NCBI GenBank assembly: GCA_033977065.1
Contig: JAXCHI010000003.1
Location: 352,001 to 416,000 of the forward strand
Origin: Candidatus Algichlamydia australiensis
GTDB taxonomy: Bacteria > Chlamydiota > Chlamydiia > Chlamydiales > JAJFMI01
Direction of reading: 5' to 3'
DNA: 64,000 nucleotides
In this document: positions 13,282 to 47,929 of the stretch, one piece after another
How positions within the stretch are numbered: position 1 is the first letter of the stretch
Layout of the letters: every line of letters starts with the position of its first letter
Notes under the pieces: generated by a model
The model's database searches: none
Seen by the model: only the letters and a program-made list of their open reading frames with translations
Told to the model about the DNA's origin: nothing
Made by a program: the position numbers and the translations under genes

Positions 13282-13400
13282 TTCGTCTCCATCTCACTAC
13301 ATAGAATCGCATCCTCGGCTTAGGGGTGTACGCAGTACAACCCCGTGCGCCTGCGGTACGATTCTATTTTGCGATATGAAGCCGTGACTCCGCTTCGCGC
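13282..13400 (+). repeat. ~120-bp hairpin element, copy A
   Basis: Ends TTCGTCTCCATCTC... and ...TTTGCGATATGAAGCCG...CCGCTTCGCGC are shared with the 47810 copy. Inner stem ATAGAATCG...CGATTCTAT with apex GTAC-gca-GTAC. Confidence 0.75.
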
Positions 13401-13416
13401 ATCAATACATTTACAT

Positions 13417-13534
13417 CGCGAAGCGGCCTAGCGGGTTAATATCGCAAAGCAAAATAAAATTTCTGCTGTTGTGAACAGTACTATGTACGGCGCAACAGCA
13501 GAAATTTTATTTGGCGCAGCGAGATTAAGCCGAA
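13417..13534 (-). repeat. ~120-bp hairpin element, copy B (tail-to-tail with copy A)
   Basis: Perfect 20-bp inner stem AAATAAAATTTCTGCTGTTG / CAACAGCAGAAATTTTATTT. Colinear with the reverse complement of 47810-47929. Confidence 0.85.
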
Positions 13535-13572
13535 GGGGGGCGGGGGCTTGCCCCGACCCAAAAAATTATCAC

Positions 13573-13790
13573 TGTGGAAAATCCTGTTGATGGAGAGTTC
13601 ATAAGATTGTTCATACTCTGTCAATAACTCAGCTCTGTGCAAAACTAACGCCTTATCATCATTTTGTTGACAGCGTTTGAACAAAAGAATTGCCTATGAA
13701 ATAGGCGATGTTATGAAGATTCCCACACCCCTTAAAGAAGAAGAGTATTCTATAAATAAGAAAATGGATTCTTAATAACGATGCTTATAA
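13573..13790. promoter_or_regulatory. Putative replication origin (oriC): array of DnaA-box-like 9-mers plus AT-rich tract
   Basis: TGTGGAAAA 13573, TGTTGATGG 13585, AGTTCATAA 13596, TGTTCATAC 13608, TGTCAATAA 13619 and TGTGCAAAA 13636, compared with consensus TGTGGATAA. Hand-sampled lines are C-rich to the left and G-rich to the right. Confidence 0.6.
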
Positions 13791-13791
13791 C

Positions 13792-14460
13792 ATGAGTCTT
13801 ATGGCAATGTTTGCTTCGAAAAATTTTTTTGATCTGGAAAGCTTTGCTCATAAAGCTCTTTTTAATAGAGCACTCTTTGTTTGGGAAGTGCTAAGAGACT
13901 TGCCTTTCTATTTTGAAGAGTTGGTATTGGGTGAAATTCAGGGAAGTGTCTCTTCTCAAGCGATGCTCGTTCATGGGGACAAGATTCATGTGGGAAAAGG
14001 AAGTCGGATTGATCCGTTTGCAATGATTGAAGGTCCTGTTTGGATCGGCGAAGATTGTGAAATTCGTCATGGCGCTCTGATTCGTCCCTATACGATTTTA
14101 GGAAACGGTTGTGTTGTCGGTCATGCCTCTGAAGTAAAATCCTCGATAATGATGAATAATGCCGCTGCAGCGCATTTTAATTATGTAGGCGACTCGATGG
14201 TCGGCTCAGATGTAAATATTGGCGCAGGCGCCAAATGTGGAAATGTTCGTTTAGACGGAAGAGAAATTCTTTTGCGCCATGGTGGCGAGGGGATTCATAC
14301 GGGATTAAGAAAGTTTGGCGCAGTTTTAGGCGATGGAACGAAACTAGGCTGCAATGTTGTCACAAATCCCGGAACGGTTGTAAGAAAAAATTTTTTGGCT
14401 TTGCCAAACGCTGTTATTGGAGGGGTCCATCTTGATGAAGAAAGTTTTTACACCTCTTGA
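13792..14460 (+). CDS. Left-handed beta-helix acyltransferase (GlmU C-terminal-like)
   Basis: Hexapeptide repeats, AHFNYVGDS and RKFGAVLGDG motifs; no pyrophosphorylase domain. Confidence 0.85.
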   Translation: MSLMAMFASKNFFDLESFAHKALFNRALFVWEVLRDLPFYFEELVLGEIQGSVSSQAMLVHGDKIHVGKGSRIDPFAMIEGPVWIGEDCEIRHGALIRPYTILGNGCVVGHASEVKSSIMMNNAAAAHFNYVGDSMVGSDVNIGAGAKCGNVRLDGREILLRHGGEGIHTGLRKFGAVLGDGTKLGCNVVTNPGTVVRKNFLALPNAVIGGVHLDEESFYTS

Positions 14461-15244
14461 AATCATTGAAGAGGCTTTGAAGGTTAGTCTTAAAGATTTT
14501 GGTGATGATCACAGGTTGAAAGAGGCGTGTAGCTATGCGCTCTTGTCAGGCGGGAAGCGATTAAGACCTTTGCTGGTTTTGCAGATTGCAGAGTCGGTTG
14601 GAAAGGGACTGGTTCCAATTGATGCAGCCGTTGCTGTTGAGTTTTTTCATACAGCTTCGCTGATTGCCGATGATCTTCCCTGCATGGACAATGAACAGTG
14701 GCGCAGAGGAAAATTAGCTCTGCATCACGCTTATGGGGAGACGGTTGCGCTTCTTGCGAGCTATGGTTTAATTACGGCGGCTTTTGAAAAAATTCATTCT
14801 GCGTCTGAAGGGTTATCGCCACAGGTTTGTGCGATTGCAGTAAAGGAAGCGGCGCAAGCTGCGGGACTAAAGGGGGCGACAACGGGACAGTTTTATGACC
14901 TCTTTCCTCCAAATACAAATCGTGAGCAGCTGGAGCGCTTGCATCATTTGAAAACGGTGACGCTGTTTGAAACGGCGTTTATCTTCGGCCACCTTTTTGG
15001 TGGGGGAGATGAGTCGCTTGTTGAAGGGGTACGCGAGTGTGCGCGCCATTTCGGCTTTGCATTTCAAATCGCAGATGATATTGCGGACTTCGAAGAGGAT
15101 AGTGAAGAGAAAAACATTGCCTGCTTCTTAGGAAAAGAGAGGGCAGAAGTTCTTTTTCAAGAAGAACTTGCCGCTTTTTCAAAAGCGGCAAGTGTTCTGC
15201 CGTATGATTTAGACGCCTTGCGGCTCTGGAAGCGTGATCCCTAA
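14435..15244 (+). CDS. ispA: Polyprenyl (farnesyl/geranylgeranyl) diphosphate synthase
   Basis: GGKRLRP, DDLPCMD, GQFYD, KT and FQIADD motifs. ATG at 14435. Confidence 0.92.
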
Positions 15245-16225
15245 TTTTTCTTGGCACTTTGTATAAATTTGCGCTTCTAATTCATTTGTGAGTTCTGGGT
15301 TTCTCTTTAACTCTTCGCGGAAGCCTTCACGTCCTTGAAAACGCTTGTCTTTATAGGTGAACCAGGAGCCCTTCTTCTCTATTAATCCAAAATCAACACC
15401 AAGGTCTAGGATAGAACCTTCGCGTGAAATTCCTTCGTTAAAGAGAATATCGAATTCGGCAATGCGGAAGGGGGGCGCCATTTTATTTTTTACAACTTTT
15501 ACTTTTACGCGGTTTCCTGTTTCACCAATGGAGGCGATGCGGCGAATATCCATGCGAATAGAGGAGTAAAATTTGAGCGCGCGTCCTCCTGTAGTGGTTT
15601 CTGGATTGCCAAACATCACGCCAATTTTTTCACGAATTTGGTTGATAAAGATAGCGCATGTGTTGCTACGTGAAAGGGTTGAGGTGAGTTTGCGCAGCGC
15701 TTGAGACATTAGTCGCGCTTGCAGACCGACGTGCGTGTCTCCAATTTCCCCATCCAGTTCATTTTTAGGAACAAGTGCAGCAACAGAGTCGATAACAATG
15801 ACATCAACAGCGTCGGAGCGTGCGAGCATTTCGACGATGTTAAGTGCCTCTTCACCACTGTTAGGTTGTGAGATCATAAGTTCATCAACGTTCACGCCAA
15901 TCTTTGCAGCGTAGCTAGGATCTAGTGCGTGCTCCGCATCAACATAGGCGCAGATGCCTCCCATTTTTTGTGCGCTTGCCACAATGTGAGTGGCAAGGGT
16001 TGATTTTCCAGAGGATTCCGGTCCGTAAATTTCAACAATTCGTCCGCGAGGCACCCCACCAATTCCAAGAGCAAGGTCTAATGAGATGGCTCCTGTCGGG
16101 ATTACTTTAAAGTTGCGATTAGCGGTGTGACTGCCAAGCGTCATGATCGCTCCTTCGCCAAACTGCTTTTCAATGTGAGAGATCGCCGCTTCGAGCGCCT
16201 TCTTTTTTGCAGAATTATCTGTCAT
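15209..16225 (-). CDS. recA: Recombinase A
   Basis: [15 protein letters not shown] and [15 protein letters not shown] motifs. Confidence 0.98.
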
Positions 16226-16277
16226 CGGGGGTACCTATCCGTTTTTAGCTTTTATCATAACGGGCAAGAGTATATAG

Positions 16278-17237
16278 ATGCAAAGTATGGTGATTCTAGC
16301 GGGTGACATTGGGGGAACAAAGACGCATCTTGCCGTTTTTGAGGGTGATGAGCGTATTTACGAAAAGCGTTTTCCCAGTCGGGATTATGCAAGTTTGGGG
16401 TTGATTGTTCAGGAGTTTCTTTCTGAAAAAAAGTTTCAGCCCACGGTTGCCTCTTTTGGAATTGCTGGTCCTGTTTGTGCAGGCCGCTGTGTAGCAACGA
16501 ATCTGGCTTGGGTTGTCGATAGTAAAGAGATTGCACAGGCCCTTAAAGTTGAAAAAGTTGGGTTGCTCAATGATCTAGAAGCGAATGCGTATGGTATTGC
16601 TGCACTAAAACCGGAAGAGTTTTTGGTCCTCAATGAGGGGGAGCAGCAGCGGGGAAATCAGGCGCTTATCTCTGCAGGCACCGGTCTTGGTGAGGCGGGG
16701 TTATACTTTGATGGAAGCGATCACCTTCCTTTTGCTTGTGAAGGTGGGCATGCTGATTTTGCTCCGCGCAACGAGAAAGAGATCGCTCTTTTTCAATTTT
16801 TACAAAAGCGTTTTGGTCATGTCTCTTATGAAAGGGTCTTGTCGGGTCCTGGAATGAAAAATATTTATGATTTTCTCGTGGAAACGGGAAGAGAGAAGCG
16901 CGATCCTGAGGTAGAGGGAGAGACCCCTAAGCGCTTTATTTCAGATAGGGCGATGAATGGAGAGAGCAGGGCTTGTGAGCACGCTTTGGATCTATTTATT
17001 TCATTATATGGGGCCGAAGCGGGAAATACTGCGTTAAAGTTTATGTCTTTGGGTGGGATTTTTGTAGGTGGAGGCATTGCTCCTAAGATTGCATCAAAGA
17101 TGCGCGATCATTTTATGAAAGCCTTTGTAGATAAGGGGCGTTTTGCAGAAATACTTCTCTCTATTCCGGTAAAAATCCTCTTAAATGAAGAGACAGCGCT
17201 TCTCGGTGCGCATCAATTTGCAAAAAAACTTAGTTGA
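16278..17237 (+). CDS. glk: Glucokinase
   Basis: GDIGGTKT, NDLEA, GTGLG, EGGH, ERVLSGPG and GGGI motifs. Confidence 0.95.
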   Translation: MQSMVILAGDIGGTKTHLAVFEGDERIYEKRFPSRDYASLGLIVQEFLSEKKFQPTVASFGIAGPVCAGRCVATNLAWVVDSKEIAQALKVEKVGLLNDLEANAYGIAALKPEEFLVLNEGEQQRGNQALISAGTGLGEAGLYFDGSDHLPFACEGGHADFAPRNEKEIALFQFLQKRFGHVSYERVLSGPGMKNIYDFLVETGREKRDPEVEGETPKRFISDRAMNGESRACEHALDLFISLYGAEAGNTALKFMSLGGIFVGGGIAPKIASKMRDHFMKAFVDKGRFAEILLSIPVKILLNEETALLGAHQFAKKLS

Positions 17238-17440
17238 GAAAGTTCTTGTTTTTCAATAAGTTATCTTTTTGTTTCTTCTTTAATTGTCAATTAATAATAA
17301 AAAAAATTGAAAAAAGTATTTTAAAATAAAAGCTTTTTATTTATACCGATGGCTAGGGAGAAATGTATGCACTCGCTGTCGATATTGTTTCGATGCAAGT
17401 GCGAAAAAAATTATCTATTTAAACCCTCGTGAGGTAAACA

Positions 17441-18655
17441 ATGAACAATATGCTTAGCAAAGTCTTTTTCGTTCTTGCAGCATCTGCAGCCGCTAGCGGT
17501 TTCGGTGCTATGAGCACTAACGAAAGAGTCGCTCAGCTTGAGCAAAAAATGGACTGCGTCTATATGGATGTGCCATTAAGTATGTGCGGTTGCGAAGTAA
17601 CTGCAAGTACTTGTGGTCCACGTCTTGCAAACGCTCGTCCTGAAGTAAAAGCGGGTAGCGGATGCACCTGCCCAGGTTGGTTCATCGCTATTGATGCTAT
17701 TTATTGGCATCCAAAAGTTGGTGGAACTGAGTACGCTTACACAGATAACACAGCGCAAGTGTTACGAGCACCAATACAGAATGCTGGAGAAGGCTTGCCA
17801 CTTAGCGGACGTGTTAAAGATGTTGATTTCGATTGGGGATGGGGCTTCAAAGTAGGCCTTGGATACAACTTCCAACATGATGGATGGGATGTATCTGCCC
17901 TTTACACAAGATTTAGTGAAGAAGATTCTGAGTCAACAAGCCCAGGAAGAAATAGCAGTGTAGTTCCATTAAGAGCTTCTGCTGGTATTACAAGTCCTGC
18001 AGGACAAGCTCCAGGACCACAAGGGGTGTTCCTTTTCTCTGAGTTTGCAAAAACTGAGTTTGATATCGATTACGATCGTATCGATTTAGAGATGGGTCGT
18101 CACTTCTTTGTGAGTGAAAAACTTTCTTTACGTCCTTTCATTGGCTTAACAGCTGCTTGGATCGACTTGCAACAGAAGATTCGCTATGTTGGCGGAGTTG
18201 CTAACGGTGAAGACCTTGGTCTTTCTGTGAACACTGTTCACGTTAAAGATGAGTCTGACTTCAAAGGTTTAGGACCACGCTTCGGTTTCAACACAAAATG
18301 GCGCTTAGGTTATGACTTTAGTCTCTATGGTGACTTCTCAATGGCGTTCCTTTATGGACACTTTGATGTTGAGCACAAAGAGAACTACAGCTTGCTACCT
18401 GCAAACAGAGTAGGTCTTGATGCGGACATGAACCGTTTCGCTCCTAACTCAACTATTGGTCTTGGTATCGCATATGACACTTATCTTAACGAAGATAAGC
18501 ATCACATCGGTCTTAAGTTTGGTTACGAGAACCACTACTGGTGGAATGTTAACCAAATGTTGAGAATTGATGATTCAACATTCTGGCGTTATGAAAGAAT
18601 GAGTGAAGATGTGAGCTTCCACGGTCTAACTTTTGAAGTTCGCTTAGACTTCTAA
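17441..18655 (+). CDS. Lpg1974/Legionella-MOMP-like outer-membrane porin
   Basis: Signal peptide; YWHPKVGG, FDWGWGF, DLEMGRHF and GLGPRFG motifs; C-terminal RLDF. Confidence 0.85.
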   Translation: MNNMLSKVFFVLAASAAASGFGAMSTNERVAQLEQKMDCVYMDVPLSMCGCEVTASTCGPRLANARPEVKAGSGCTCPGWFIAIDAIYWHPKVGGTEYAYTDNTAQVLRAPIQNAGEGLPLSGRVKDVDFDWGWGFKVGLGYNFQHDGWDVSALYTRFSEEDSESTSPGRNSSVVPLRASAGITSPAGQAPGPQGVFLFSEFAKTEFDIDYDRIDLEMGRHFFVSEKLSLRPFIGLTAAWIDLQQKIRYVGGVANGEDLGLSVNTVHVKDESDFKGLGPRFGFNTKWRLGYDFSLYGDFSMAFLYGHFDVEHKENYSLLPANRVGLDADMNRFAPNSTIGLGIAYDTYLNEDKHHIGLKFGYENHYWWNVNQMLRIDDSTFWRYERMSEDVSFHGLTFEVRLDF

Positions 18656-18682
18656 GTTTAGCCAATAGCTAACTGAAACGAT

Positions 18683-18714
18683 AAGCCGCTGGGTTTCCCA
18701 GCGGCTTTTTTTTT
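18683..18714 (+). terminator. Rho-independent terminator of the porin gene
   Basis: AAGCCGCTGGG-ttt-CCCAGCGGCTT followed by a T run. Confidence 0.9.
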
Positions 18715-18721
18715 CGGCTTA

Positions 18722-18882
18722 GATAGCGTCGTCAAAAGCATACAACCATCTTATTTTTCATGTTTGGGCTCCATTTTTGTGCTCAAATGAAGCGGAATTT
18801 ACAAATTCAGCTTCAATTTCCGCACAAAAATAAGCTGCAAACATGAAAAATAATCTGATTATAGCCTTTTGACGACACTATC
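18722..18882. mobile_element. 161-bp palindromic MITE with TA duplication (intact copy)
   Basis: TIRs GATAGCGTCGTCAAAAG / CTTTTGACGACACTATC, flanked by TA. A second copy at 36800-38077 appears identical apart from an IS insertion. Confidence 0.9.
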
Positions 18883-18910
18883 TAATCTCGCGGTGCCAAA
18901 TCGCAAATAC

Positions 18911-19074
18911 GAGGCAGCCTTCAAATTCATTCCGCCAACAAAAGTTATCTTTTTCCTCAGAAAAAGTTCTTCGAGCTGCACAAACATAAATAATGTTTGC
19001 TCCGCTCTGCAGAAGCTTTTTCTGCGAAAAAATCTTTCCTTTTGCTGGCGAAAGCAACTCGAAGCCCCCCTCTC
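18911..19074. repeat. ~164-bp imperfect palindrome
   Basis: Arms CGCCAACAAAAG/CTTTTGCTGGCG and CAGAAAAAG/CTTTTTCTG; apex CAAACAT-aaata-ATGTTTG. Ends are approximate. Confidence 0.7.
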
Positions 19075-19220
19075 AGCTGTCGCGCCGTATCACTTATACT
19101 ACTATGTGGTTGTGTCAAGGTGAGTGATCACATTTTTTTCCTTCCTTGTTTTTAAATTTATTTGTTTCAAATTTTTAACTATGCCTTATCGGCCAATCTA
19201 CTATTCGTGATCAAACTTTT

Positions 19221-19282
19221 CTGTCATGGCGGCAGTTTTGTCATTTGGCTTTGCGAGATGAAGCCGCTAGGTCGCTTCGTGT
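19221..19282 (+). repeat. Right half of a ~120-bp hairpin-family element
   Basis: CTGTCATGGCGGC...TTTGCGAGATGAAGCCGCTAGGTCGCTTCG aligns with 47868-47929. Confidence 0.7.
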
Positions 19283-19380
19283 GGTTTAATTGTTTTTTTA
19301 GTTTTAGGTAATATTTTCTGTTTCTAATTAAATGGTTTTATTTTATGGTCCGGTTTAAGGATGAGTAGGTTTATTTAACT

Positions 19381-20466
19381 GTGAAACGTTTTTTTTGTAT
19401 TGGTTTGTTTTTGCTTTCTTCTGCTTTTGCGGTAGAGGGAATGATGACGTTCGATCAACTGGAGGTGCAGGTAAGAGAGCTGCAAGAGAAGGTTGCCAAC
19501 ATCACTGCGGAAACGCATTTGGATACAAATGCGCTTGTTTTGAAAACTGCGAATCCTGAGGTAGAAGAGGGAACGTGCTGGTTTGCAACAGCGGATATTC
19601 TGTATTGGCATCCTAAGGTAGGGGGGACGGCGTTTGCTTATTCTAATTCCCTCAATAATGTTGGGCTTCCTGTTAAAGGGCGCACAAAAAAAATTGATTT
19701 TGGTTGGGATTGGGGCTTTCGCTTCGGTTTGGGTCGCAACTTCTGCCACGATGAGTGGGACATCTATGTGAATTACACGCATTTCTATTCGACTGATAGT
19801 GAGCATACGGGTGCGGGACTGAACTCAACTGTCATTCCTTTGAAAGGGGCTGTTCTGACGGCAAATGGTGTAGGCAGCGCTAAATCACACTTTGATTTTG
19901 ACTTTGATGCGATTGATTTGGAGTTGGGAAGACACTTTTTTTTGAGTCAGAGGCTTGCGCTTCGTCCTTTTATTGGGCTGAAGACTGCTTGGATCGACTT
20001 GGATCAGGTCACACGTTACACAGGTGGCTCTATCGATATTTTAACGGCTAAGGTTGAGGATCAGTCGGACTTTTGGGGGCTTGGGCCGCGACTTGGTGTT
20101 CACTCTGAGTGGAACCTTTATAGAGGCTTTCGTTTCGTGGGAGATCTTTCGGGCTCTATGCTCTTTGGTCACTTTGACGTAGATCGCCGTGAGCATTTGA
20201 CTTCGTCTCCAGGTCAGGATGTGAAGCTGTGTGCTGATGAAAATCGTTTTTTACCCGTATTACAACTCTTTTTAGGGTTTGGATATGGGACCTATTTTGA
20301 TTGCAAAAATGTCTATCTAACGATTGATGCGGGGTATGAGGCGCAATATTGGTGGCGTGCCAACCAAATGCTGCGTGTTTACGAATATAACGCTTTTCGC
20401 TACGAGCAGATTTCAGAAGACATGACAATGCATGGGCTCACGATCAAACTGCGTCTTGATTTCTGA
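19381..20466 (+). CDS. Lpg1974/Legionella-MOMP-like porin, paralogue 2
   Basis: Same motifs as 17441-18655 (YWHPKVGG, DLELGRHF, C-terminal RLDF). Confidence 0.85.
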   Translation: MKRFFCIGLFLLSSAFAVEGMMTFDQLEVQVRELQEKVANITAETHLDTNALVLKTANPEVEEGTCWFATADILYWHPKVGGTAFAYSNSLNNVGLPVKGRTKKIDFGWDWGFRFGLGRNFCHDEWDIYVNYTHFYSTDSEHTGAGLNSTVIPLKGAVLTANGVGSAKSHFDFDFDAIDLELGRHFFLSQRLALRPFIGLKTAWIDLDQVTRYTGGSIDILTAKVEDQSDFWGLGPRLGVHSEWNLYRGFRFVGDLSGSMLFGHFDVDRREHLTSSPGQDVKLCADENRFLPVLQLFLGFGYGTYFDCKNVYLTIDAGYEAQYWWRANQMLRVYEYNAFRYEQISEDMTMHGLTIKLRLDF

Positions 20467-36799: not shown

Positions 36800-38077
36800 G
36801 ATAGCGTCGTCAAAAGCATACAACCATCTTATTTTTCATGTTTGGGCTCCATTTTTGTGCTCAAATGAAGCGGAATTTACAAATTCAGCTGGCCTTGTTG
36901 CGTAAATAGCAATTGAAGAAAGTCGTGTCCCGTTTCTTTTTTTCTTTCTCTTACTCAGATTGTTATCCATTCGCCTTTCGGCATCCCTAGACTGCTTATT
37001 TTATTCATCGCTACACTCTTCGCGTATGCTTCTGCTCTTTGATTTTTTAGCTTGCGGGTTTTCAGTTTGTCACCAAATATCGTTTTGAATCGATACATCG
37101 CTGTTTCTGCCATTGATCGCCTATGATATCCTATTAATTTCTTCCAAATTTTTCTTCCTTCTTCGTCTCCTCCTAGTCCTTTAATTGCCTCTAACGCTTC
37201 ATTTCTATCTCTCATCCACGGCTCTTTTTCTAATTCGTGCCTCACTCCATTTTTCTGCGGCGGGATTATCGGTTTGCTTTTTTAATTCCCTATAGCTCTC
37301 TTTTGTATCGTAGGCTCCATCTCCATAGACTCTTTTTACTTTTTTAGGCAGCTTTTTCATGATTTTTCTTCCAGCTTGGCTGTCTCCTTCACTATTCTTT
37401 CCTAGTTTGCTTAAAACTATTTCGTGGCTATCAGGACATGTCGCTAAATGCAGTTTGCGCCAGGTTCTTCTCTTTTTCTTACCGTGTTTACGTGCATTCC
37501 ATTCGCCTTCTCCGTATACTTTTAATCCTGTTGAATCAATGACGATATCTGCCGGCTGCTTTTTGCTTATTTTTGCTACTTCTTTTCCGAGTTTCCCTGC
37601 CCTCCTACATATACGGGTGTAACACGGCACTGGTAGCTCCACTCCTAATAGAATCATTAGAGTTTCCAAAAAACCTGCTAATCCCCTATAGGGCAGGTGG
37701 TAAACTGACTTGATAATCAAGGCGCAAAGAATGGCATCATCAGAATATATTTCGGGTCTTCCTCTTTTAGATTTTCCGTCTGAGAGCCATTTCTCAATAG
37801 CATCTGGCGACAACCAAAAAGTGATGCTTCCTCTTTTTTTCAGGGATTTGTTATATTCAGACCAGTTGCGGATGATGTACTTTTTATTTGTCTCTTTCAT
37901 GTAACCTCTAAATCTTCGTAGTGATTAACAAAAATTTAAAGTCTTACTGAAATTTTGACAAGAAAGTCTTTATCCGCAGCTATTTACGCAACAAGGCCAA
38001 TTCAGCTTCAATTTCCGCACAAAAATAAGCTGCAAACATGAAAAATAATCTGATTATAGCCTTTTGACGACACTATC
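36800..38077. mobile_element. Second copy of the 161-bp TA-MITE, split by an IS
   Basis: Both halves match 18722-18882; TA at 36798 and 38078. Confidence 0.92.
36891..37998 (-). mobile_element. IS5-family (IS903-like) insertion sequence, 1108 bp, with frameshifted transposase (37900-36955)
   Basis: 20-bp perfect TIR GGCCTTGTTGCGTAAATAGC and 9-bp target duplication AATTCAGCT. Motifs NWSEYN..L..RGS, IDSTGLKVYGEGEW, DGAYD and YHRRS.AETAM.R.K. Confidence 0.95.
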
Positions 38078-38370
38078 TAGATTTTATTTCATTATCTACA
38101 GCTTACAAGGAGAAAGAGCTTGAACAGGGGTTAGTCGATCATATCCAGAGATTTTTAGTTGAACTTGGTGAGGGTTTTGCTTTTATGGGAAGGCAATTTC
38201 AAATCAATGTTCAAGGAGAAGAGCACTTTTTAGATCTTCTTTTTTATCACGTGAAGTTGCGCTGCTATGTGGTAATTGAACTTAAGACAACAGCTTTTGA
38301 CCCTCGTGATGCGGGACAAATCAACTTTTACCTATCTGCTGTGGATGATCTTATGAGGCATCCTGACGAT

Positions 38371-38530: not shown

Positions 38531-38675
38531 ATAAGCCTACTATCGGAATTTTGCTCTGCAAAACAAAAAATAAAGTGAAAGTTGAATATGCTCTTCGCAA
38601 TTCTAAGAGTCCGATAGGGGTGGCAAGTTATGAAACCAAAATTCTAAAGAATTTGCCTAAAAACCTTAAGTCTAG

Positions 38676-39076
38676 TACTCTGTAACAGAAAATCTTAGTG
38701 TTTAATTTAAAAAAACAGCCAATAGAGACAGTCGGGCAAATCTCCGCTGCCCTTTGAGCTTCATCTTGGCATGCCAAATTGCGTTTCGTCGGAAAACCGT
38801 GCAAAGCACTACTTCTTCCTCCTGCACCGCAATTTTTCAAAGCCAATCTGAAGCCATCGAGCGCATCGCGCGTTCATTCCCCACCCTCCACTTTGTTTCG
38901 GGAGGGGCCCCTTTCACGTCGCTTGCGCGGCTGTTTTTTTTGTTTTGCAGAAAACTTTGCAAGGTCTAGACAGCTTTTTCAATCACATACAATCGCTTTA
39001 CTTTTCACGTTTGGGATCCATTTTTATGCGAAGGCTTTGACGTAAAAATAATACTAAAATTTTCTGTTACAGAGTA
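38676..39076. mobile_element. 401-bp non-coding element with TIRs and CTAG duplication
   Basis: TIR TACTCTGTAACAGAAAAT / ATTTTCTGTTACAGAGTA; CTAG at 38672 and 39077. Excision restores NLKSSLPT. Confidence 0.9.
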
Positions 39077-39207
39077 CTAGTCTTCCAACAGTCGAAGAAA
39101 TTGAAGAAGAGCTTTTGGGAATCAAAAATATGTAAAATGATTTCACCAATAATTGAGGGAGAATCTTTTTTTATTGCAGGTAGCTTGCACCCTCCCTCTA
39201 TGCTGTT

Positions 39208-40698: not shown

Positions 40699-41742
40699 TT
40701 ATTCCAGTAGAAATTGAAAGAAGGTGTCTTTTGAAGAGAGTCCTTTGCGGATATTGAGTTTGCTTCCGGTTTTTTTGCCAGCGCGGCTGCCCTCTTTGTG
40801 GTTCACTACGCGCGACCGTGTGGTGCGCAGATGGGGGTAGGCAAGAGGGAGCGCTTTTTGCAGAGCATAATCAATTTTATAAAGGGCGCGCGAATGTTCT
40901 GCTTGTGTCTGTTTGATTTTTTGACAGTAGCCGTCGGCAATTCCGCGGAAGAAAGAGTTTTTTGCAGCGAGGCCATGTAGGTGGGTCTGCTCTTTGTAGA
41001 GCTGTTCAAATTCGTGATAGAGAAAGTGCGCGACGTATTCGGCAATTTCAACGGAGAGGTGCGGACCAAAAATTTCTAAGGTGGTGCTGTTAAAGATCGG
41101 ATGGACGCCAAAGGTACGTAGGATTTGTGCGATCGATTGGATTTTGCTCGAGGCTCTTTTGAAGGTGAAGATGCGGCGCATCACCATGTCGGTTTCCTCA
41201 TTTAGATGGGTAATTTGATGTTTGAGAAGCAGTTCTTGTGCTTTGAGGGTGGCGTTTTGCGCTTCATGGGGATTGTTGCTGGAGGAGAGGGCGAGGAGTT
41301 TTTTGATTTTTTGGACAATGCGCTCTTCGGTTTTTTCTTGGAGAAGGGGGGCGGTGGCGCGTTTAATTTCGGGAGGAAAACCATACTCATCGCAGATGGC
41401 GCGAAAGGCTTTGCTGTGGGTAAGATCATTAAAGCGGAGGTAGGCGATCATGTGTGCGAGCTCGTGGCGCAGGATGTCGGCAGGATTTGTTGCCGCTTTG
41501 TGGATACCAATTTCAAAATGCTTAGGATCAAAATAGCCGAGTCGTCTCTCATCTTCAAAAATAAGGATGCGCAGGCGGTAGCGATAGTGATTCCATGTGA
41601 GAGTGAGTCCGCGAATAGAGAGGCGCATCTCCTCTTTCATAATTTGAATGGCAAGGTGCTCAAGTTCGCGAATTTTCTTTTCGGGAAAAAGGTAGGTAGT
41701 GATGAGTTGACTCCAGGTTTCTACATAGTTACAATGGAGCAT
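40699..41742 (-). CDS. SprT-like zinc metalloprotease plus DUF2786 domain protein
   Basis: LRHELAH...H..AF zincin motif; KIKKLLALSSSNNPHEA. Confidence 0.8.
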   Translation of the reverse strand: MLHCNYVETWSQLITTYLFPEKKIRELEHLAIQIMKEEMRLSIRGLTLTWNHYRYRLRILIFEDERRLGYFDPKHFEIGIHKAATNPADILRHELAHMIAYLRFNDLTHSKAFRAICDEYGFPPEIKRATAPLLQEKTEERIVQKIKKLLALSSSNNPHEAQNATLKAQELLLKHQITHLNEETDMVMRRIFTFKRASSKIQSIAQILRTFGVHPIFNSTTLEIFGPHLSVEIAEYVAHFLYHEFEQLYKEQTHLHGLAAKNSFFRGIADGYCQKIKQTQAEHSRALYKIDYALQKALPLAYPHLRTTRSRVVNHKEGSRAGKKTGSKLNIRKGLSSKDTFFQFLLE

Positions 41743-41764
41743 TATCTAACAAATGTGGTTTTTT

Positions 41765-43390
41765 ATGGAGCAGACTGAAGAATTCACCCCTGAACAGAGT
41801 AAAATTTTAGAGCAATACGTTTCTAATTTAGATAGTAATATTTTCGTTTTGCGGAATTTGCCTGAGGTGATTAAAGGCGCCCTTTTCTCTCGTTACTCCC
41901 GTTCTGTCTTGGGGTTGCGGTCACTTTTGTTAAAAGATTTTATTATGAATGAGGAGATGGCGTTTGACTCGATTGTCGGTGAGTCGCCGGAGACTAGTCA
42001 CGATGGTCAGTTTGTTGCGATTAAGAAGGCACAAAACTTTTATGATCGTATTCTTGATGGTTATGGTGACGATTCGATCGGTGAGCTAGGGGGAACCCAC
42101 TTGGCGATTGAAAATGTTTCCATGATTGCTGCCAAAGTGATTGAAGATTGCCGGATTGGAGGATCACCGCTTGAGAAGTCGACACGCTACATCTATTTTG
42201 ACCAAAAAGTAAACGGAAAATTCCTCTTCTATCGTGAGCCTGTGATCATGACAAGTGCCTATCGAGATCTCTATGTGGAGACGTGTGACAGGTTATTTGA
42301 AACTTATGGTCGTTTGATTCCACCTCTAACAGAAAAAATTGAAAAGACCTTCCCCAAAGATCCCGATGTTTCTAAGTTCGCTTACAATGCGGCACTACGC
42401 GCGAAGGTACTCGACTGCCTGCGCGGTCTATTACCAGCAAGTACGATGACGAACATGGGAGTCTATGGAAATGGACGTTTTTTTGAAGGGTTAATTGCAA
42501 AGCTACAGTGCTCTCCTTTAGCAGAGTTGCAAGAGTCGGGCCGCAAGAGTTACGCAGAACTTTCAAAAGTAATTCCCTCTTTTGTGCGCCGCTCTGATCC
42601 AACGCACAAGAATCAGGTCTCCTATTTTGAGTATCAGGAGCGTTTGGCAAACGAATTGAAAATCCACTCTTCACGCCTAGGGGAGCTATCTCCCATGAAG
42701 GATGCGGGTGTTCGTCTGATTGATTATGATGCCGATGCTCCTGAGAAAGTAGCTGCGGCTCTGCTCTTTTCCAATTCAAATGCTGGTTTGCATGAGTTGC
42801 AAGAGCACGCACAAAAAATGGAGCGAATTGATCGAGAAAAACTCTTCCGTTCGATCTCTTCTATCCGAGAAAATCGTCGTCACAAATCACCGCGCGCCCT
42901 TGAACATGCGACATTTACGTTTGAAATTTGCGCCGATTACGGTATCTATCGCGATTTGCAGCGTCATCGCATGCTGACACAAGAGAGGCAACTGCTTACT
43001 TGCGACTATAATTACTACACGCCAGAAGAGATTGTGGGAACCGAGATTGAAGCTGAATACCACAAGGCAATGGAAGAGGCAAAAGAGGCATTTGATACGA
43101 TGGCCAAAGCGCTTCCTGAAGAGGCGCAGTATGTTGTGCCGATGGCCTACAACATCCACTGGTACTTCAAAGTAAACTTGCGCGCTCTGCAATGGCTCTG
43201 TGAATTGCGCTCTTCACCTGCGGGACATCCGATGTATCGCTTAGTTGCTCAGGAAATGGCCAAGCAGGTCTCTCAAGTTTTTCCTGAATTTGAAACCTTT
43301 TTTGGTTTTGTCGACTATGATGGCTACCAACTTGGCAGATTGGGGCAAGAAATTCGCCTTGTTGAAAAGATGCAAGCGAGGCGACCTTGA
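41765..43390 (+). CDS. thyX: FAD-dependent thymidylate synthase (tandem-domain chlamydial type)
   Basis: GYGDDSI.EL, EKSTRY and RDLQRHR motifs; ~540 aa. Confidence 0.9.
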   Translation: MEQTEEFTPEQSKILEQYVSNLDSNIFVLRNLPEVIKGALFSRYSRSVLGLRSLLLKDFIMNEEMAFDSIVGESPETSHDGQFVAIKKAQNFYDRILDGYGDDSIGELGGTHLAIENVSMIAAKVIEDCRIGGSPLEKSTRYIYFDQKVNGKFLFYREPVIMTSAYRDLYVETCDRLFETYGRLIPPLTEKIEKTFPKDPDVSKFAYNAALRAKVLDCLRGLLPASTMTNMGVYGNGRFFEGLIAKLQCSPLAELQESGRKSYAELSKVIPSFVRRSDPTHKNQVSYFEYQERLANELKIHSSRLGELSPMKDAGVRLIDYDADAPEKVAAALLFSNSNAGLHELQEHAQKMERIDREKLFRSISSIRENRRHKSPRALEHATFTFEICADYGIYRDLQRHRMLTQERQLLTCDYNYYTPEEIVGTEIEAEYHKAMEEAKEAFDTMAKALPEEAQYVVPMAYNIHWYFKVNLRALQWLCELRSSPAGHPMYRLVAQEMAKQVSQVFPEFETFFGFVDYDGYQLGRLGQEIRLVEKMQARRP

Positions 43391-44604
43391 AGAGGCATGG
43401 CAGCATTCTCGGTGGTATGCTCCTTACTACAGGAAGTTGTATTGGAGCGGGAATGCTGGCACTCCCGATTTTGACAGGACTGGCAGGTTTTTTGCCAACG
43501 CTGTTAATGTTTTTTTTAGCTTGGGCTTTTATGACGACAACAGCACTGCTGCTTGTTGAGGTCAACAGTTGGCATACAAAACCGGTAAACCTTCTCACAA
43601 TGGTGGGAGAGACTTTGGGAAAAGCGGGCCGCGCCTTAAGTTGGGCGCTCTATTTGCTGCTCTTCTACTCTCTTCTTGTTGCCTACATGACTTTAAGTGG
43701 TAACCATGTCCACTCTTTTTCTGACCACTTGCTCGGAATTCATATTCCCGACTACGTTGGAACTCTCTTTTTTGTTCTTCTCTTTGGGTGGCTCATCTTT
43801 TTAGGAACGCGTGCTGTCGACTACTTAAATCGTTTTTTAATGGTGGGTAAAATCGCAGCATTTCTTCTTCTGGTCATTTTGGGCGTGCGTTATATGCAAC
43901 CGCAATTGCTGCTGCAAAGCGATCTCTCTCTTGCGTTTTACTCGCTTCCCGTTTTGATCATCTCGTTTGGCTTTCACAATATGATTCCGACGCTGACAAA
44001 CTATATGAAGGGCGATGCAGTGCGCGTGAAAAAAGCCATTTTGGCTGGTTCACTATTTACCTTAGCTCTCTACTTAGTTTGGGAAATTCTGGTTTTGGGA
44101 ATTTTGACAGATGGGCAAATTATTTCTGCATTTAAAGATGATATTGATGCAGCGCAAGCGCTAAAGAATTTACTTGGTTCGTCGAGCTTTGGGTTTTCCG
44201 CACAAGCTTTGGCATTCTTTGCTGTGCTGACATCGCTTCTTGCGCAATCTCTTGGTTTATCTCATTTTATTGCCGATGGATTAAAAATTCCGCATGGCAA
44301 TCGCCGAGAAAACCCGTGGACGGCACTGCTTGCCCTCCTGCCGCCACTTATTTTTACCATGCTCTTCCCTCAACTCTTTTTTGAAGCGATCAACTTCGCT
44401 GGAGGGATTTGCGCTGTCGTGCTTTTTGGACTCTTCCCTGTGATGATGGTCTGGATTGGGCGCTACCGTCAAAATAAAGAGGGGAGTTATCGTCACATAG
44501 CAGGTAAACCCCTTCTTGCGCTGATCTTTCTCTTTGCCCTCTTTATCTTCTTCTATCAATTGAGCCAGATGATCGGGCTCCAAATTTTCCCAAAGCCCGC
44601 CTAA
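43387..44604 (+). CDS. tyrP: Aromatic amino-acid permease (TyrP/Mtr family)
   Basis: GSCIGAGMLALP and SFGFHNMIPTL motifs; multi-TM. Confidence 0.88.
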   Translation: MKRHGSILGGMLLTTGSCIGAGMLALPILTGLAGFLPTLLMFFLAWAFMTTTALLLVEVNSWHTKPVNLLTMVGETLGKAGRALSWALYLLLFYSLLVAYMTLSGNHVHSFSDHLLGIHIPDYVGTLFFVLLFGWLIFLGTRAVDYLNRFLMVGKIAAFLLLVILGVRYMQPQLLLQSDLSLAFYSLPVLIISFGFHNMIPTLTNYMKGDAVRVKKAILAGSLFTLALYLVWEILVLGILTDGQIISAFKDDIDAAQALKNLLGSSSFGFSAQALAFFAVLTSLLAQSLGLSHFIADGLKIPHGNRRENPWTALLALLPPLIFTMLFPQLFFEAINFAGGICAVVLFGLFPVMMVWIGRYRQNKEGSYRHIAGKPLLALIFLFALFIFFYQLSQMIGLQIFPKPA

Positions 44605-45827
44605 TGACACTAAAAGTAAACCATTTCTTAGGAGGGATCTTTCTAGTTGCAGGCACAACGATTGGAGCAGGGATGTTAGGTGGTCCTCTGACGACAGGAT
44701 TTTCAGGATTTATTCCTTCGATGGTCTATTTTTTAGTCTGTTGGACGGTCATGCTTATCTCAGCCTTCTGCTTTCTCGATGTGAATCTAGCTGTGCGTGG
44801 TGAACCTAACATGATCTCTATGGCAGAGAGGACATTAGGCACTTGGGGAAAAGTCGCAAGCTGGATCGTCTATCTCCTCCTTCTCTACTCTCTTTTAGCT
44901 GCCTACATTTTAGTCAGCGGTCCTCTTTTCGAGGGTGCCTACACTTACTTAACAGGCAGCGATCTGCCGCAATGGATTGGCCCCTTTTTACTCCCTCTTA
45001 TTTTTGGAGGATTTATCTACTTTGGCACTTTTGGTGTTGATCTCATCAACCGCCTTGTCATGTGCGGGTTGTTGATCAGTTTTTTTCTCCTTATCGGCGC
45101 TCTTCCCGAGCATATCGAGCCAAAGCTTCTCACTCATTTTGACTGGAGGCCGATGCCAATTGCCCTTCCTCTGATATTAACAGCGTTTGGTTACCACATT
45201 ATTATTCCCAGTTTGACCACCTACATGAATCACGATCGCAAACATTTGGTTTATACAATTGTAGTGGGTAGCCTCCTCTCATTGCTCACCTACACTATCT
45301 GGCAATTTTGCGCGCTGGGAGTCGTACCCCTGATAGGAAGTTCAAGTATTGCAGAAGCGTATAGCAAAGGGACCTCTATTACGCAGGTGATGGCGGTGAT
45401 TATCCAAAACAGGTGGGTTGTGATCTTTGCCCTTTTCTTCTCTTTCTTTGCGATTGTCTCGTCATTCCTTGGGGTCTCTTTGAGCCTTTCGGATTTTCTT
45501 ACAGATGGCTTTAAAATTAAAAAGAGTTGGGAGGGAAAATTGTTTGCGATTGCACTGACTTTTCTGCCCCCTCTCTTCTTTGTATTTAGCTACCGTGAAG
45601 GATTTGTTTTAGCGCTTGAATACGCTGGTGCTTTCGTTGCTATTCTGCTCATCTTTTTACCAGCTGCCATGGCGTGGACTCTAAAAACCCCCAAGTTCTA
45701 TCGCAGTTTATGGGGGAGAGTGATGCTGGCTTCCATTAGTCTTTTCGCCCTAATAATTACGATTTTTGTTATTATGGATCGTCTTGGAATGTTCAGGGAT
45801 GCAATCAGCCAATATGTTTCAACTTAA
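44604..45827 (+). CDS. tyrP: Aromatic amino-acid permease (TyrP/Mtr family), paralogue
   Basis: GTTIGAGML and AFGYHIIIPSL motifs; multi-TM. Confidence 0.88.
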   Translation: MTLKVNHFLGGIFLVAGTTIGAGMLGGPLTTGFSGFIPSMVYFLVCWTVMLISAFCFLDVNLAVRGEPNMISMAERTLGTWGKVASWIVYLLLLYSLLAAYILVSGPLFEGAYTYLTGSDLPQWIGPFLLPLIFGGFIYFGTFGVDLINRLVMCGLLISFFLLIGALPEHIEPKLLTHFDWRPMPIALPLILTAFGYHIIIPSLTTYMNHDRKHLVYTIVVGSLLSLLTYTIWQFCALGVVPLIGSSSIAEAYSKGTSITQVMAVIIQNRWVVIFALFFSFFAIVSSFLGVSLSLSDFLTDGFKIKKSWEGKLFAIALTFLPPLFFVFSYREGFVLALEYAGAFVAILLIFLPAAMAWTLKTPKFYRSLWGRVMLASISLFALIITIFVIMDRLGMFRDAISQYVST

Positions 45828-47805
45828 TACTAAGTACCAGCCCAAAGGAGATCAGCCCAAAGCGATCAAGCGCCTTGCAGAAGGGGTAAAGGAGGGCAAA
45901 AAGAGCCAGGTACTTCTCGGTGTTACAGGTTCTGGAAAGACCTTTACAATGGCCAATATTGTGGCCGAGGTACAAAAACCAACCCTCGTTCTTGCTCACA
46001 ATAAAACATTAGCAGCGCAACTCTTTCAGGAGTTTAAAGGATTTTTTCCCAATAACGCTGTTGAGTACTTCGTCTCTTACTACGACTACTACCAACCCGA
46101 AGCCTACATCGCGCGTACCGACACATTTATTGAAAAAGATTTGGCGATCAACGATACCATCGACAAAATGCGCCTCTCTGCTACACGCTCCCTCATCGAG
46201 CGGCGAGATGTCTTGATTGTCTCTTCCGTGAGCTGCATCTACGGTTTGGGAATGCCAGAATTTTATTGCAAAATGGCCCTCACGATCGAAACAGGCAAAG
46301 AGTTTAGACGCGATGATCTACTTCTCCATCTTGTAGAGATGCGCTATGAGCGAAACGACTACGAACTCTCCCGCGGAAAGTTTCGTGTGCGAGGCGATGT
46401 GATTGAACTTGTGCCTGCGTACGAAGAAGATGTTGCCTATCGCATCGAATTTTTTGATGAACTTTGCGAGCGCATCTCCGATATCGATCCCCTCACAGGC
46501 AAAGTTCTTTCTCGTCGCGAAAGAGTAACCATTTTTCCCGGCTCCCACCACGTGACTCCTGAAGAAGTGCGTGAACAAGCATTAGAAACCATCTCGCAAG
46601 AGCTTGTGTTGCGGGCAAATCATTTTGAAGCCAACAAACAATTTTTAGAGCACCAGCGTATCTTAGAGCGCACTAAACACGACTTAGAGATGATCAAAGA
46701 AGTGGGGTATTGCAAAGGTGTGGAAAACTACTCACGCCATTTTAGCGGTCGCAATGCTGGTGATCCACCTCCTTGCCTCCTTGACTATTTTCCCGATGAC
46801 TTTCTCCTCTTTGCCGATGAGTCGCACCAATCCCTACCGCAAGTGCGCGCCATGTACAACGGTGACCGCGCTCGCAAAGAATCCCTAATTGAATTTGGCT
46901 TTCGTCTCCCATCAGCCTTTGACAACCGCCCCCTTAAATTTGAAGAATTTTATTCACGACTTAAGCAAGTCGTTTACGTATCAGCAACACCCAGTCCTTG
47001 GGAAGTGGAAGAGGCGGGTGGTGAGATTGTCGAACAAATCATCCGCCCCACAGGTCTTCTTGACCCACTAATTGAAGTGCGTCCTGCAGCTGACCAAGTT
47101 GATGACTCATTAGAAGAGATCCAAAAAGAGGTAGAAAATGGCCACCGCGTACTCGTCACTACCCTGACAAAAAAACTTGCCGAAGACCTCACCAAATACT
47201 TAACTGAAATCGGCATCAAAGCGCGCTATCTCCACTCCGATATCGATACGTTAGAGCGTGTGCAAATCATCAAGGAGCTCCGTGAAGGCCTCTTTGATGT
47301 CCTCGTTGGTATCAACCTTCTCCGTGAAGGCCTAGACATTCCTGAAGTAACTCTTGTTGCGATACTCGACGCAGATAAAGAGGGTTTTTTACGCTCCGAA
47401 ACCGCCCTCATCCAGACCTGTGGTCGTGCGGCGCGCAACGCAAAAGGGCGCGTAATCATGTACGCCGACAAAGAGACAAAAAGTATAGAAGGAACGATTC
47501 GCATCACAAAAGAGCGGCGCGCTCTGCAGGAAGCGTACAACGCCAAACACAACATCACCCCCAAAACAATTACCAAAGCAGACGCTGCAGATCTGGTTGA
47601 AACCTTTACAGGTGCCAAATTAGAAGAGGCGAAATCGCTCCACGAGAAATCTCTAGATCCAGAAGATCTTGCACGCAAACTTGCTGACTGTGAAAAACTT
47701 ATGTTGAAAGCGGCCAAAGAGCAGCAATATGAAGAGGCTGCCCGCTATCGCGACCTAGTCAAATTCTACAAAGAACTCTCTTTGTTAGAGGATCATCCCC
47801 ATTAA
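45814..47805 (+). CDS. uvrB: Excinuclease ABC subunit B
   Basis: GVTGSGKT, YYDYYQPEAY, DESH and GRAARN motifs. ATG at 45814. Confidence 0.98.
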   Translation: MFQLNTKYQPKGDQPKAIKRLAEGVKEGKKSQVLLGVTGSGKTFTMANIVAEVQKPTLVLAHNKTLAAQLFQEFKGFFPNNAVEYFVSYYDYYQPEAYIARTDTFIEKDLAINDTIDKMRLSATRSLIERRDVLIVSSVSCIYGLGMPEFYCKMALTIETGKEFRRDDLLLHLVEMRYERNDYELSRGKFRVRGDVIELVPAYEEDVAYRIEFFDELCERISDIDPLTGKVLSRRERVTIFPGSHHVTPEEVREQALETISQELVLRANHFEANKQFLEHQRILERTKHDLEMIKEVGYCKGVENYSRHFSGRNAGDPPPCLLDYFPDDFLLFADESHQSLPQVRAMYNGDRARKESLIEFGFRLPSAFDNRPLKFEEFYSRLKQVVYVSATPSPWEVEEAGGEIVEQIIRPTGLLDPLIEVRPAADQVDDSLEEIQKEVENGHRVLVTTLTKKLAEDLTKYLTEIGIKARYLHSDIDTLERVQIIKELREGLFDVLVGINLLREGLDIPEVTLVAILDADKEGFLRSETALIQTCGRAARNAKGRVIMYADKETKSIEGTIRITKERRALQEAYNAKHNITPKTITKADAADLVETFTGAKLEEAKSLHEKSLDPEDLARKLADCEKLMLKAAKEQQYEEAARYRDLVKFYKELSLLEDHPH

Positions 47806-47809
47806 TTTA

Positions 47810-47929
47810 TTCGGCTCCTTCTCGCTGCACCAAATCGTAATTCAGCCGCCAAGCCGTGTTATTTACACTGTCATGGCGGCTGAATTACGATTTTGCTTTG
47901 CGATAAGAACCCGTTAAGCCGCTTCGCGC
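47810..47929 (+). repeat. ~120-bp hairpin element, copy C
   Basis: Perfect 20-bp inner stem AAATCGTAATTCAGCCGCCA / TGGCGGCTGAATTACGATTT; ends in CCGCTTCGCGC. Confidence 0.88.

Follow-up and report, generated by a model that had tools for sequence, protein, structure and literature searches.

The locus raises the question of what the ~118-nt hairpins that recur along it are, and by what route they came to lie there. The window is a 64,000-nt stretch of contig JAXCHI010000003.1 from the genome of Candidatus Algichlamydia australiensis (G000; 1.8 Mb, 93.4% complete), and positions are given within it (Table 1). A preliminary description had grouped three copies, A, B and C, into one family, and this grouping holds: a model (R1) built from 15 copies, these three among them, recovers each of them with the score listed. 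The unit occurs at about 25 places in G000, 15 of which score at least 87 bits, and at about 35 in a congener (G001). Its conserved ends, TCTCGCTGCGCCAAAT and ATTTTGCTTTGCGATA, and its fixed unpaired bases flank a variable paired stem, and its 3' tail ends in CGCTTCGCG (plus CATCAATA), which reads CGCGAAGCG on the opposite strand. The spacer between copies A and B contains CATCAATA, which the 3'-flank consensus identifies as a semi-conserved 3' extension of copy A. Such tail-to-tail pairs comprise A/B in G000 and were also seen in another genome (G009), and tandem arrays of the unit occur in G001. Module 0, which reads GGGTCGGGGC..GCCCCCGC.CCCC on the element strand, also lies 5' of seven copies in G000 and shares homology with the 5' portion of a longer element of ~280 nt. 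No Pfam family was found in the 10 open frames over the element. No Rfam family (Rfam 15) matched either, a possibility that the preliminary description had raised, in a scan of the window at gathering score and in E-value scans of 10 + 7 loci; only the tRNA reached the gathering score, and the sub-threshold matches to miRNA hairpins were chance.

Table 1. Positions of the hairpin copies and their neighbours in the window
Feature	Position	Strand	Remarks
tRNA-Pro	13174..13248	+	Rfam tRNA 53.9 bits; upstream of copy A
Copy A	13282..13399	+	R1 87.7 bits; 34 nt 3' of tRNA-Pro
Spacer A/B	13400..13416		17 nt; copies A and B tail to tail
Copy B	13417..13534	-	R1 127.4 bits; inner stem 20 bp, perfect
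Module 0 of copy B	13535..13565	-	GC-rich mini-hairpin after T-run
Broken copy	18713..19282	+	pieces 18713-18721, 18885-~18920, 19224-19281
Hairpin MITE in broken copy	18722..18884		unrelated to the hairpin family; TA-flanked
MITE	38674..39078	+	405 bp; perfect 20-bp TIRs
uvrB	45766..47805	+	Pfam UvrB domains; upstream of copy C
Copy C	47810..47928	+	R1 133.4 bits; begins 4-5 nt past uvrB stop codon

The hairpins form a real family, a structure-constrained repeat with compensated stems. Both copy B and copy C have a perfect inner stem; between the two stems, 9 of the 20 positions differ, every difference being compensated, just as had been described. In the alignment of 15 full copies, pairing holds in 91.4% of cells and both sides have changed at 20 of the 41 pairs, a level reached by none of 500 shuffles, and slid controls paired at 29.8-45.2%. 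A deeper alignment from five genomes has 18 of 27 pairs compensated. The co-variation proposed for the outer and apical stems was also borne out, as pair 10/99 is A-T in nine copies and T-A in six, and apical pairs co-vary too. The unpaired positions said to be conserved are so: the columns of the internal loop show no covariation, being nearly invariant, and the same is true of the terminal CGCTTCGCG, which reads CGCGAAGCG on the opposite strand. Folded as single strands, copies B and C gave z scores of -6.6 to -9.3 (-6.6 and -8.8 for copy B), and none of 200 shuffles folded as well. Copy A folded more weakly (-1.7 and -3.2); alignment with the deep family shows it to be a divergent subtype whose inner structure is still three-way, as in the older element of ~280 nt.

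The two strands of the hairpin are not equivalent. The CGCGAAGCG strand folded better in 49 of 54 copies with RNA parameters and in 53 of 54 with DNA parameters. The strand bias of G-T pairs, which had been put forward as a check, pointed the same way in raw numbers, since over 55 rows, a number that includes one duplicate antisense row, the element strand had A.C in 83 cells and G.T in 44; these cells nevertheless reduce to few distinct combinations of column and type (about 28 for A.C and 20 for G.T by hand count), and we do not rely on them. Both asymmetries count as few events because they rest largely on few shared columns. It is the other strand, complementary to the better-folding CGCGAAGCG strand, that lies on the lagging-strand template. 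The strand with the d(GCGAAGC) mini-hairpin stressed in the preliminary description, which folds best, is thus not the one exposed on that template, a point against the ssDNA reading.

The orientation of the copies follows replication. The element strand (TTCGG...CGCTTCGCG) is leading-strand sequence (lagging-strand template) in 16 of 17 full G000 copies and in 26 of 30 copies in G001, as assigned by synteny with G000 after one duplicate row was dropped. Genes in G000, by comparison, are co-oriented with replication in 687 of 1332 cases (51.6%), and the near-identical copies of the 405-bp MITE, which served as the orientation control, split 8:7 in a hand count of strands. The ~280-nt relatives in G009 showed no replication bias (five agreed with the local skew, seven disagreed and one was unclear), and DnaA boxes did not cluster near the skew minimum. 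Replication-linked orientation, as in elements transposed as single-stranded DNA (ssDNA), supports the ssDNA reading of the family.

The copies also sit just after gene 3' ends, as had been noted from the sequence. A co-oriented ORF stop lies at most 40 nt upstream of 13 of 20 copies in G000 and 20 of 32 in G001, and of the upstream neighbours named earlier, uvrB was confirmed by Pfam and tRNA-Pro by Rfam. On the downstream side, a convergent stop is no more than 40 nt away for 4 of 20 copies in G000 and for 11 of 31 in G001. None of 200,000 simulations was as extreme in how closely copies hug the upstream stop, and the six convergent cases alone gave P = 4.5e-5. Because so many copies lie within 40 nt past co-oriented stop codons, they must be transcribed together with the upstream genes, as hairpins in the 3' UTR. 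The absence of a target duplication, claimed previously, extended to 51 copies, in which no flank register rose above shuffles for k = 3-5. The left flanks are A/T-rich and contain no conserved tetra- or pentanucleotide. The 44 ORFs flanking 18 loci revealed no recurrent neighbour protein, being housekeeping genes and one DDE transposase.

The ~118-nt family descends, in shortened form, from a structured repeat of ~280 nt that is spread through chlamydial/PVC genomes and whose members end in inverted AGACG...CGTCT-like termini. The hairpin copies turn over between the two congeners. At eight loci shared by G000 and G001, copies are 58-70% identical to their positional counterpart and up to 91-92% identical to paralogues, and many G001 copies have no counterpart in G000. 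Intergenic DNA of the two genomes is too diverged to be aligned at the level of exact empty sites; the only visible events are gains and losses of whole units between conserved genes. Identity between any two copies reaches at most ~92%, and there is thus no sign of recent activity.

A Y1 or RAYT nuclease had been suggested as the partner to look for, and such a gene exists in the congener. G001 encodes a single-copy REP-associated tyrosine transposase (RAYT, Y1 HUH) with HUH and Tyr motifs, which scored 85.7 bits against NF047646 (cut-off 80 bits). In G000, however, searches of the 93.4% complete genome with PF01797, NF047646 and tblastn gave no match to Y1_Tnp/RAYT, and co-occurrence across genomes was not discriminating, with RAYT-like matches in 4 of 11 element-bearing genomes (G001, G009 in part, G035 and G044) versus 15 of 35 relatives without the element. 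The available 5' flank of the G001 gene contains neither the element nor the motif, and a contig end cuts its 3' flank. We also collected 80 metagenome loci with relatives of the G001 RAYT ORF (41-49% identity). Among 32 variants of CGCNNNGCG at these loci, CGCGAAGCG/CGCTTCGCG was the commonest, with 78 occurrences in 33 loci, and the next commonest had 36. Within 500 nt of the RAYT gene lay 58 of the 78 sites, distributed over 25 of the 80 loci, and none fell inside the gene. Hairpins of ~120-135 nt that end in ...CGCTTCGCG stand on both sides of the gene at loci L175, L154 and L171. The CGCGAAGCG motif is not enriched genome-wide in G000, where 37 sites (18 of them inside ORFs) compare with 39 for the AAA variant. 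A reverse transcriptase, which a group II intron or retron route would involve, was found in none of five element-bearing genomes searched with PF00078.

The family is probably an ssDNA substrate, with a RAYT as candidate mobiliser. The reading that we lean towards takes the ~118-nt units for a REPIN-like hairpin repeat that is non-autonomous, was copied from ssDNA by a RAYT and is probably immobile in G000 today. The Y1 HUH enzyme would make new copies from folded ssDNA, and these would enter the lagging-strand template immediately beyond the end of translation. The TCTCGCTGCGCCAAAT and ATTTTGCTTTGCGATA ends would clamp the stem, leaving its letters free to change provided that pairing is kept. 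Since no RAYT was found in G000, the copies there are probably immobile or served by an enzyme absent from the assembly.

The placement behind stop codons would also suit an RNA element selected by the host, in which a 3'-UTR hairpin shields the 3' end of the mRNA or serves as a mark for processing and spread is secondary. REP and ERIC elements are reported to play such roles. Between two species whose genes are only ~76-78% identical, the conserved blocks hardly differ, G000 copies retain the motifs though no RAYT was found, and a weak terminator-like hairpin lies 24 nt downstream of copy C. An mRNA function, however, does not predict the replication orientation seen in both genomes, and the transcribed strand folds less well, with more A.C than G.U. 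The hairpin lacks the following T-run of an intrinsic terminator, and positional counterparts have been replaced rather than conserved. We regard selection at the RNA level as an unlikely explanation of the family.

Other mobile elements in the window bear on a second alternative. The two fragments listed in the preliminary description, at ~18713-18910 and 19221-19282, are real family sequence, but they belong to a single copy that has been broken twice. This copy starts inside the T-run of a canonical terminator (18683-18707), and its inner stem is split by a further insert of ~300 nt; the same long form occurs at G000:C3:138417-138720. The MITE lodged in it has a TA target duplication, in contrast to the hairpin family, and one of its ends matches DNA adjoining an IS5-type transposase (36955-38080). 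Inside the 405-bp MITE, which occurs in G000 in 14 or more near-identical copies, lies a homologue of the hairpin core (38754-38880) that has diverged and comes with module 0 and a T8 tail. Active TIR/TA MITEs are present, one of them with a core homologue, the outer stem of the hairpin is an imperfect inverted repeat, and the ~280-nt relatives have inverted termini. These features would fit an ordinary DDE-type MITE of the Correia/ERIC kind, moved in trans by a cut-and-paste transposase that reads the outer stem as TIRs, with compensated stems arising from diverged master copies or arm-to-arm copying. Against it, the 51 copies lack a target duplication, the unit is asymmetric with a tail on one side only, DDE-type MITE copies in G000 do not share the replication bias, and the lone DDE hit among the flanking ORFs is no recurrent transposase. 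Arm-to-arm copying would, moreover, erase the conserved mismatches. We consider this origin quite improbable.

The comparison with integron attC sites drawn earlier fails. These sites combine variable paired positions and conserved unpaired bases with an orientation tied to replication, as the hairpins do, but a site of this kind, or another tyrosine-recombinase site read as a folded strand, is very improbable here, given that the alignment has no conserved GTTRRRY/RYYYAAC (GTTAAGC occurs by chance in copy C only) and that copies are scattered singly behind housekeeping genes and not in cassette arrays. Nor do the copies behave simply as Rho-independent terminators, for terminator scans did not call them and they have no T-run; the true terminator is the one at 18683-18707.

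Most of what is known of REP/REPIN-RAYT systems comes from Proteobacteria and cyanobacteria. The hairpins described here would add a well-resolved REP/REPIN-like family from chlamydiae, which has another tag motif, descends clearly from a larger structured repeat of PVC-wide spread and obeys two strong positional rules, namely a single replication orientation and placement directly behind stop codons. Taken together, tag, descent and rules allow the manner and place of insertion of such hairpins to be approached directly from genomes. The congener with a RAYT and G000 without one form a natural experiment on what becomes of hairpins after the enzyme is lost, be it decay, persistence or retention by the host. 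The family also accounts for many "structured" intergenic regions in these genomes and should be masked before ncRNA or terminator prediction. More speculatively, and in our view doubtfully, CGCGAAGCG-tagged long hairpins may be a cross-phylum REP class with its own RAYT clade. In chlamydiae, they would outlive the enzyme while keeping motifs, orientation and stop-codon placement, and would therefore either have been co-opted as orientation-specific host elements where the end of translation, transcription and the replication fork meet, or be renewed by RAYTs that come and go.

Among known repeats, ERIC/IRU and Correia (CREE/NEMIS) elements are imperfect palindromes of ~120-150 bp in transcribed intergenic DNA with orientation-dependent effects at the RNA level. 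The chlamydial hairpins are likewise imperfect palindromes in transcribed intergenic DNA. ERIC/IRU and Correia elements have TIRs, and Correia elements also a TA duplication, whereas the hairpin family has no target duplication; neither is known to show a replication bias. IS200/IS605 elements (IS608, ISDra2) and their derivatives without a gene resemble the family in that a folded single strand with unpaired bases is read by a Y1 HUH enzyme, no target duplication is made and orientation is tied to the lagging-strand template, according to the sections of PMC6006769 available to us; in the chlamydial element, either strand may be the active one. However, IS200/IS605 elements have separate left- and right-end hairpins and a fixed target tetranucleotide, whereas the chlamydial family is one long hairpin with no conserved flank motif and no TnpA.

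The closest likeness is to REPINs and their RAYTs. As far as the accessible parts of the papers describe them (PMC3116915, PMC6006769, PMC3733652, PMC2817692), these share a hairpin unit of ~100 nt with conserved ends, a compensated spacer and an asymmetric single-stranded tail. They are also extragenic, often at gene 3' ends, occur as singlets, inverted pairs and tandem clusters, and make no target duplication. The congener has a single-copy RAYT, and the end motif of the family recurs in hairpins that bracket relatives of that RAYT. The chlamydial family differs in that GTAG/GTGG is absent from the consensus, whether of 15 or of 54 copies, and there is no CGTC foot, its tag being CGCGAAGCG/CGCTTCGCG, that its arms are not themselves REP palindromes and the unit is not a doublet of REPs, and that near-identical copies are absent. 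Neither G000 nor 7 of the 11 element-bearing genomes has a RAYT. The replication-orientation bias and the hugging of stop codons are marked in the chlamydial family, and we did not find either reported for REPINs in the accessible parts of that literature. Our searches on chlamydial palindromic repeats and MITEs, on Algichlamydia and on GCGAAGC with transposases found no description of the family, and the genome paper (PMC11317633) mentions 11 transposases and no such repeats in the parts accessible to us. REPINs, as portrayed in the available sections of PMC3116915, have highly conserved ends, a variable spacer with compensated pairing and an asymmetric tail. Since a variable, compensated stem between invariant ends has already been described there, the kind is known, although the chlamydial family itself is new.

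We confirmed that the three hairpin copies reported in the window (A, B and C) are real, and a profile made from them gave 69 matches across the source genome, Candidatus Algichlamydia australiensis (G000; 1.8 Mb, 42% G+C, 7 contigs). The window corresponds to G000 C3:352001-416000. A covariance model (R1) was built from 15 full copies (alignment A1) and searched against both strands of G000, yielding 41 matches at ~25 places, of which 15 scored at least 87 bits. The element strand was defined as TTCGG...CGCTTCGCG; the CGCGAAGCG of the preliminary description is its complement, and a TATTGATG box adjoins CGCGAAGCG. In A1, 91.4% of the cells were paired, and both partners had changed in 20 of the 41 pairs; not one of 500 shuffles came up to this, and slid controls paired at 29.8 to 45.2%. 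The compensated stems noted earlier stood up in the larger alignment. Single-stranded DNA folds gave z of -6.6 to -9.3 for copies B and C, and a weaker value for copy A. The supposed fragments at 18713-19282 do belong to the family, but they form one interrupted copy and not separate ones. Neither the short form nor the ~280-nt long form described below matched any Rfam family. Features of the window and related sites are listed in the table.

Features of the window and related sites elsewhere in G000
Feature	Position	Remarks
Copy A	window 13282-13399 (+)	
Copy B	window 13417-13534 (-)	
Broken hairpin copy	window 18713-19282	split by TA-flanked MITE plus second insert of ~300 nt; start falls in T-run of canonical terminator
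TA-flanked hairpin MITE	window 18722-18884	inside broken copy; end matches DNA beside the IS5-type gene
IS5-type DDE transposase gene	window 36955-38080	frameshifted; two copies in genome
405-bp MITE	window 38674-39078	TIR-bounded; at least 14 near-identical copies; carries decayed homologue of hairpin core; this copy interrupts a gene
Copy C	window 47810-47928 (+)	
XRE-type HTH gene, then Fic/DOC gene	window 48046-49144	directly after copy C; toxin-antitoxin-like pair; HTH gene has counterpart in congener G001
Solitary CGCTTCGCG tails	C2:210745, C3:138390, C4:65375, C4:194485	intergenic, all leading strand; (T/C)(A/T)TCAATAA extension after two
T6-(A)TG-A6 short palindrome	3' flanks of copies at C3:600220, C2:381231, C2:84459	10-15 nt downstream of these three hairpin copies
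RNase P RNA-like stretch	C3:~600242-600282 (locus L001 201-241, -)	truncated match to bacterial RNase P RNA 3' end; just downstream of one hairpin copy, convergent with it

The four solitary tails resemble 3' ends left behind when the rest of a copy was lost. Beyond the HTH-Fic/DOC pair lie a 2OG oxygenase, an AAA_14/DUF4143 ATPase and two sulfotransferase-like genes, followed by topA-SWIB. The ~405-bp MITE type and a 165-bp type have a common 20-bp terminal repeat (78 terminal-repeat matches genome-wide) and often occur in direct 165-405-165 strings.

At E ≤ 0.001, R1 found matches in 6 of 41 related genomes, G000 included. The congener G001 carried 65 matches at ~35 places, some of them tandem, and diverged matches were found in G009 (13), G035 (3), G026 (2) and G021 (1). 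These diverged matches represent the core of a longer element (~280 nt) that has conserved ends of its own, and they are frequently arranged in tail-to-tail pairs; seven G000 copies keep module 0 of the longer element, a GC-rich mini-hairpin 5' of the copy. A five-genome alignment showed compensation in 18 of 27 predicted pairs. An exact two-block signature of the family was also present, in the long form, in 16 stretches from further genome records, which are titled as chlamydial and other PVC MAGs. The 44 ORFs flanking 18 long-form loci were housekeeping genes with no recurrent partner among them. In G009 (loci L077-L085 and L023-L038), the elements often stand tail to tail ~35 nt apart and are crossed by stop-free frames of 160-200 codons without Pfam matches.

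Eight G001 copies adjoin orthologues of G000 genes that bear a copy too. At these shared loci, positional counterparts are only 58-70% identical, paralogues reach 91-92%, and no pair of copies is near-identical. Many G001 copies fall where the G000 intergenic DNA is almost nil. Together with the low counterpart identity, this indicates gain, loss or overwriting within the family after the two species diverged.

The copies hug gene ends. With ORFs called by a simple rule, a co-oriented stop lay ≤40 nt upstream of 13/20 copies in G000 and 20/32 in G001, and a convergent stop ≤40 nt downstream of 4/20 and 11/31, respectively. Against uniform placement, none of 200,000 simulations was as extreme for upstream-stop hugging (11 copies), and the effect held in the convergent cases (n = 6, P = 4.5e-5). 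Terminator function, raised earlier as a possible refutation, is disfavoured, as no T-run follows the hairpins and terminator scans do not call them. The statement that target duplications are lacking was borne out in 51 copies.

Apart from stop-codon proximity, replication orientation showed a bias of its own. The cumulative GC skew of contig C3 switches at its minimum at C3:~365,000 (window ~13,000), next to tRNA-Pro and to copies A and B, which stand tail to tail; window ~12000-14000 is a likely replication-origin region. DnaA-box-like words did not cluster near this minimum. Counting G000 copies other than A and B, the element strand was the leading-strand sequence in 16/17 full copies and in 20/25 with fragments included. 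As controls, 687/1332 G000 ORFs were co-oriented with replication, and the 405-bp MITE copies split 8:7 by strand. In G001, oriented through flanking genes on the G000 replichores on the assumption that gene orientation is conserved between both species, 26/31 copies were in leading-strand orientation (26/30 after removal of a duplicate antisense row). No replication bias was found for the G009 long form.

The CGCGAAGCG strand was predicted to be the more stable in 49/54 copies with RNA parameters and 53/54 with DNA parameters. The G-T strand-bias test suggested earlier also revealed an asymmetry favouring this strand, as mismatches on the element strand comprised 83 A.C cells versus 44 G.T (55 rows, one duplicate). 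Both asymmetries represent few events, as they arise mostly from features that the copies share (a handful of columns, the GAA triloop and loops rich in purines), and both point to a strand that is exposed neither on the lagging-strand template nor in the mRNA of the upstream gene. A role as a 3'-UTR hairpin RNA may account for the retention of copies and is compatible with a REPIN-like element, but it leaves the replication bias unexplained.

We searched for a mobilising enzyme and found no Y1_Tnp, RAYT (REP-associated tyrosine transposase) or reverse transcriptase in G000. One G001 ORF passed the NCBIfam REP-associated tyrosine transposase model (85.7 bits, cut-off 80) and contains an HUH motif, NHYHF, together with a Tyr motif, YVMENPV. 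This ORF is located at the end of a contig, and its 5' flank has no element. RAYT-like matches occurred in 18/41 relatives and 1/5 further element-bearing genomes. With 4/11 element-bearing genomes versus 15/35 others, co-occurrence with the hairpins does not discriminate. In G013, another chlamydial genome, a RAYT-like gene lies between two identical perfect 65-nt palindromes (locus L109, 922-986 and 1932-2000), a textbook REPtron whose repeat is unrelated to the hairpin family. We also examined 80 metagenome loci whose genes code for proteins related to the G001 RAYT (41-49% identity). Of the 32 CGCNNNGCG variants, CGCGAAGCG/CGCTTCGCG occurred most often, at 78 sites distributed over 33 loci; the next commonest had 36 sites. 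Of its sites, 58/78 lay ≤500 nt from the RAYT gene and none inside it. At three of these loci, hairpins of ~120-135 nt that end in ...CGCTTCGCG stand on either side of the gene, and R1 detects them.

REPINs are described as having invariant ends and, between them, a spacer that is less conserved and matters chiefly for its length and hairpin-forming capacity; compensatory changes are common, the tail is asymmetric, and tandem clusters occur (PMC3116915). Transposition by Y1 HUH enzymes is coupled to the lagging-strand template (PMC6006769). Taken with our results, these features are best explained, if by one hypothesis, by an ssDNA element that is REPIN-like and of RAYT type, although any mobiliser in G000 would be hypothetical. 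The family falls outside the classical GTAG REP families; in such a REPIN-like element, the terminal CGCGAAGCG would serve as the tag in place of GTAG.
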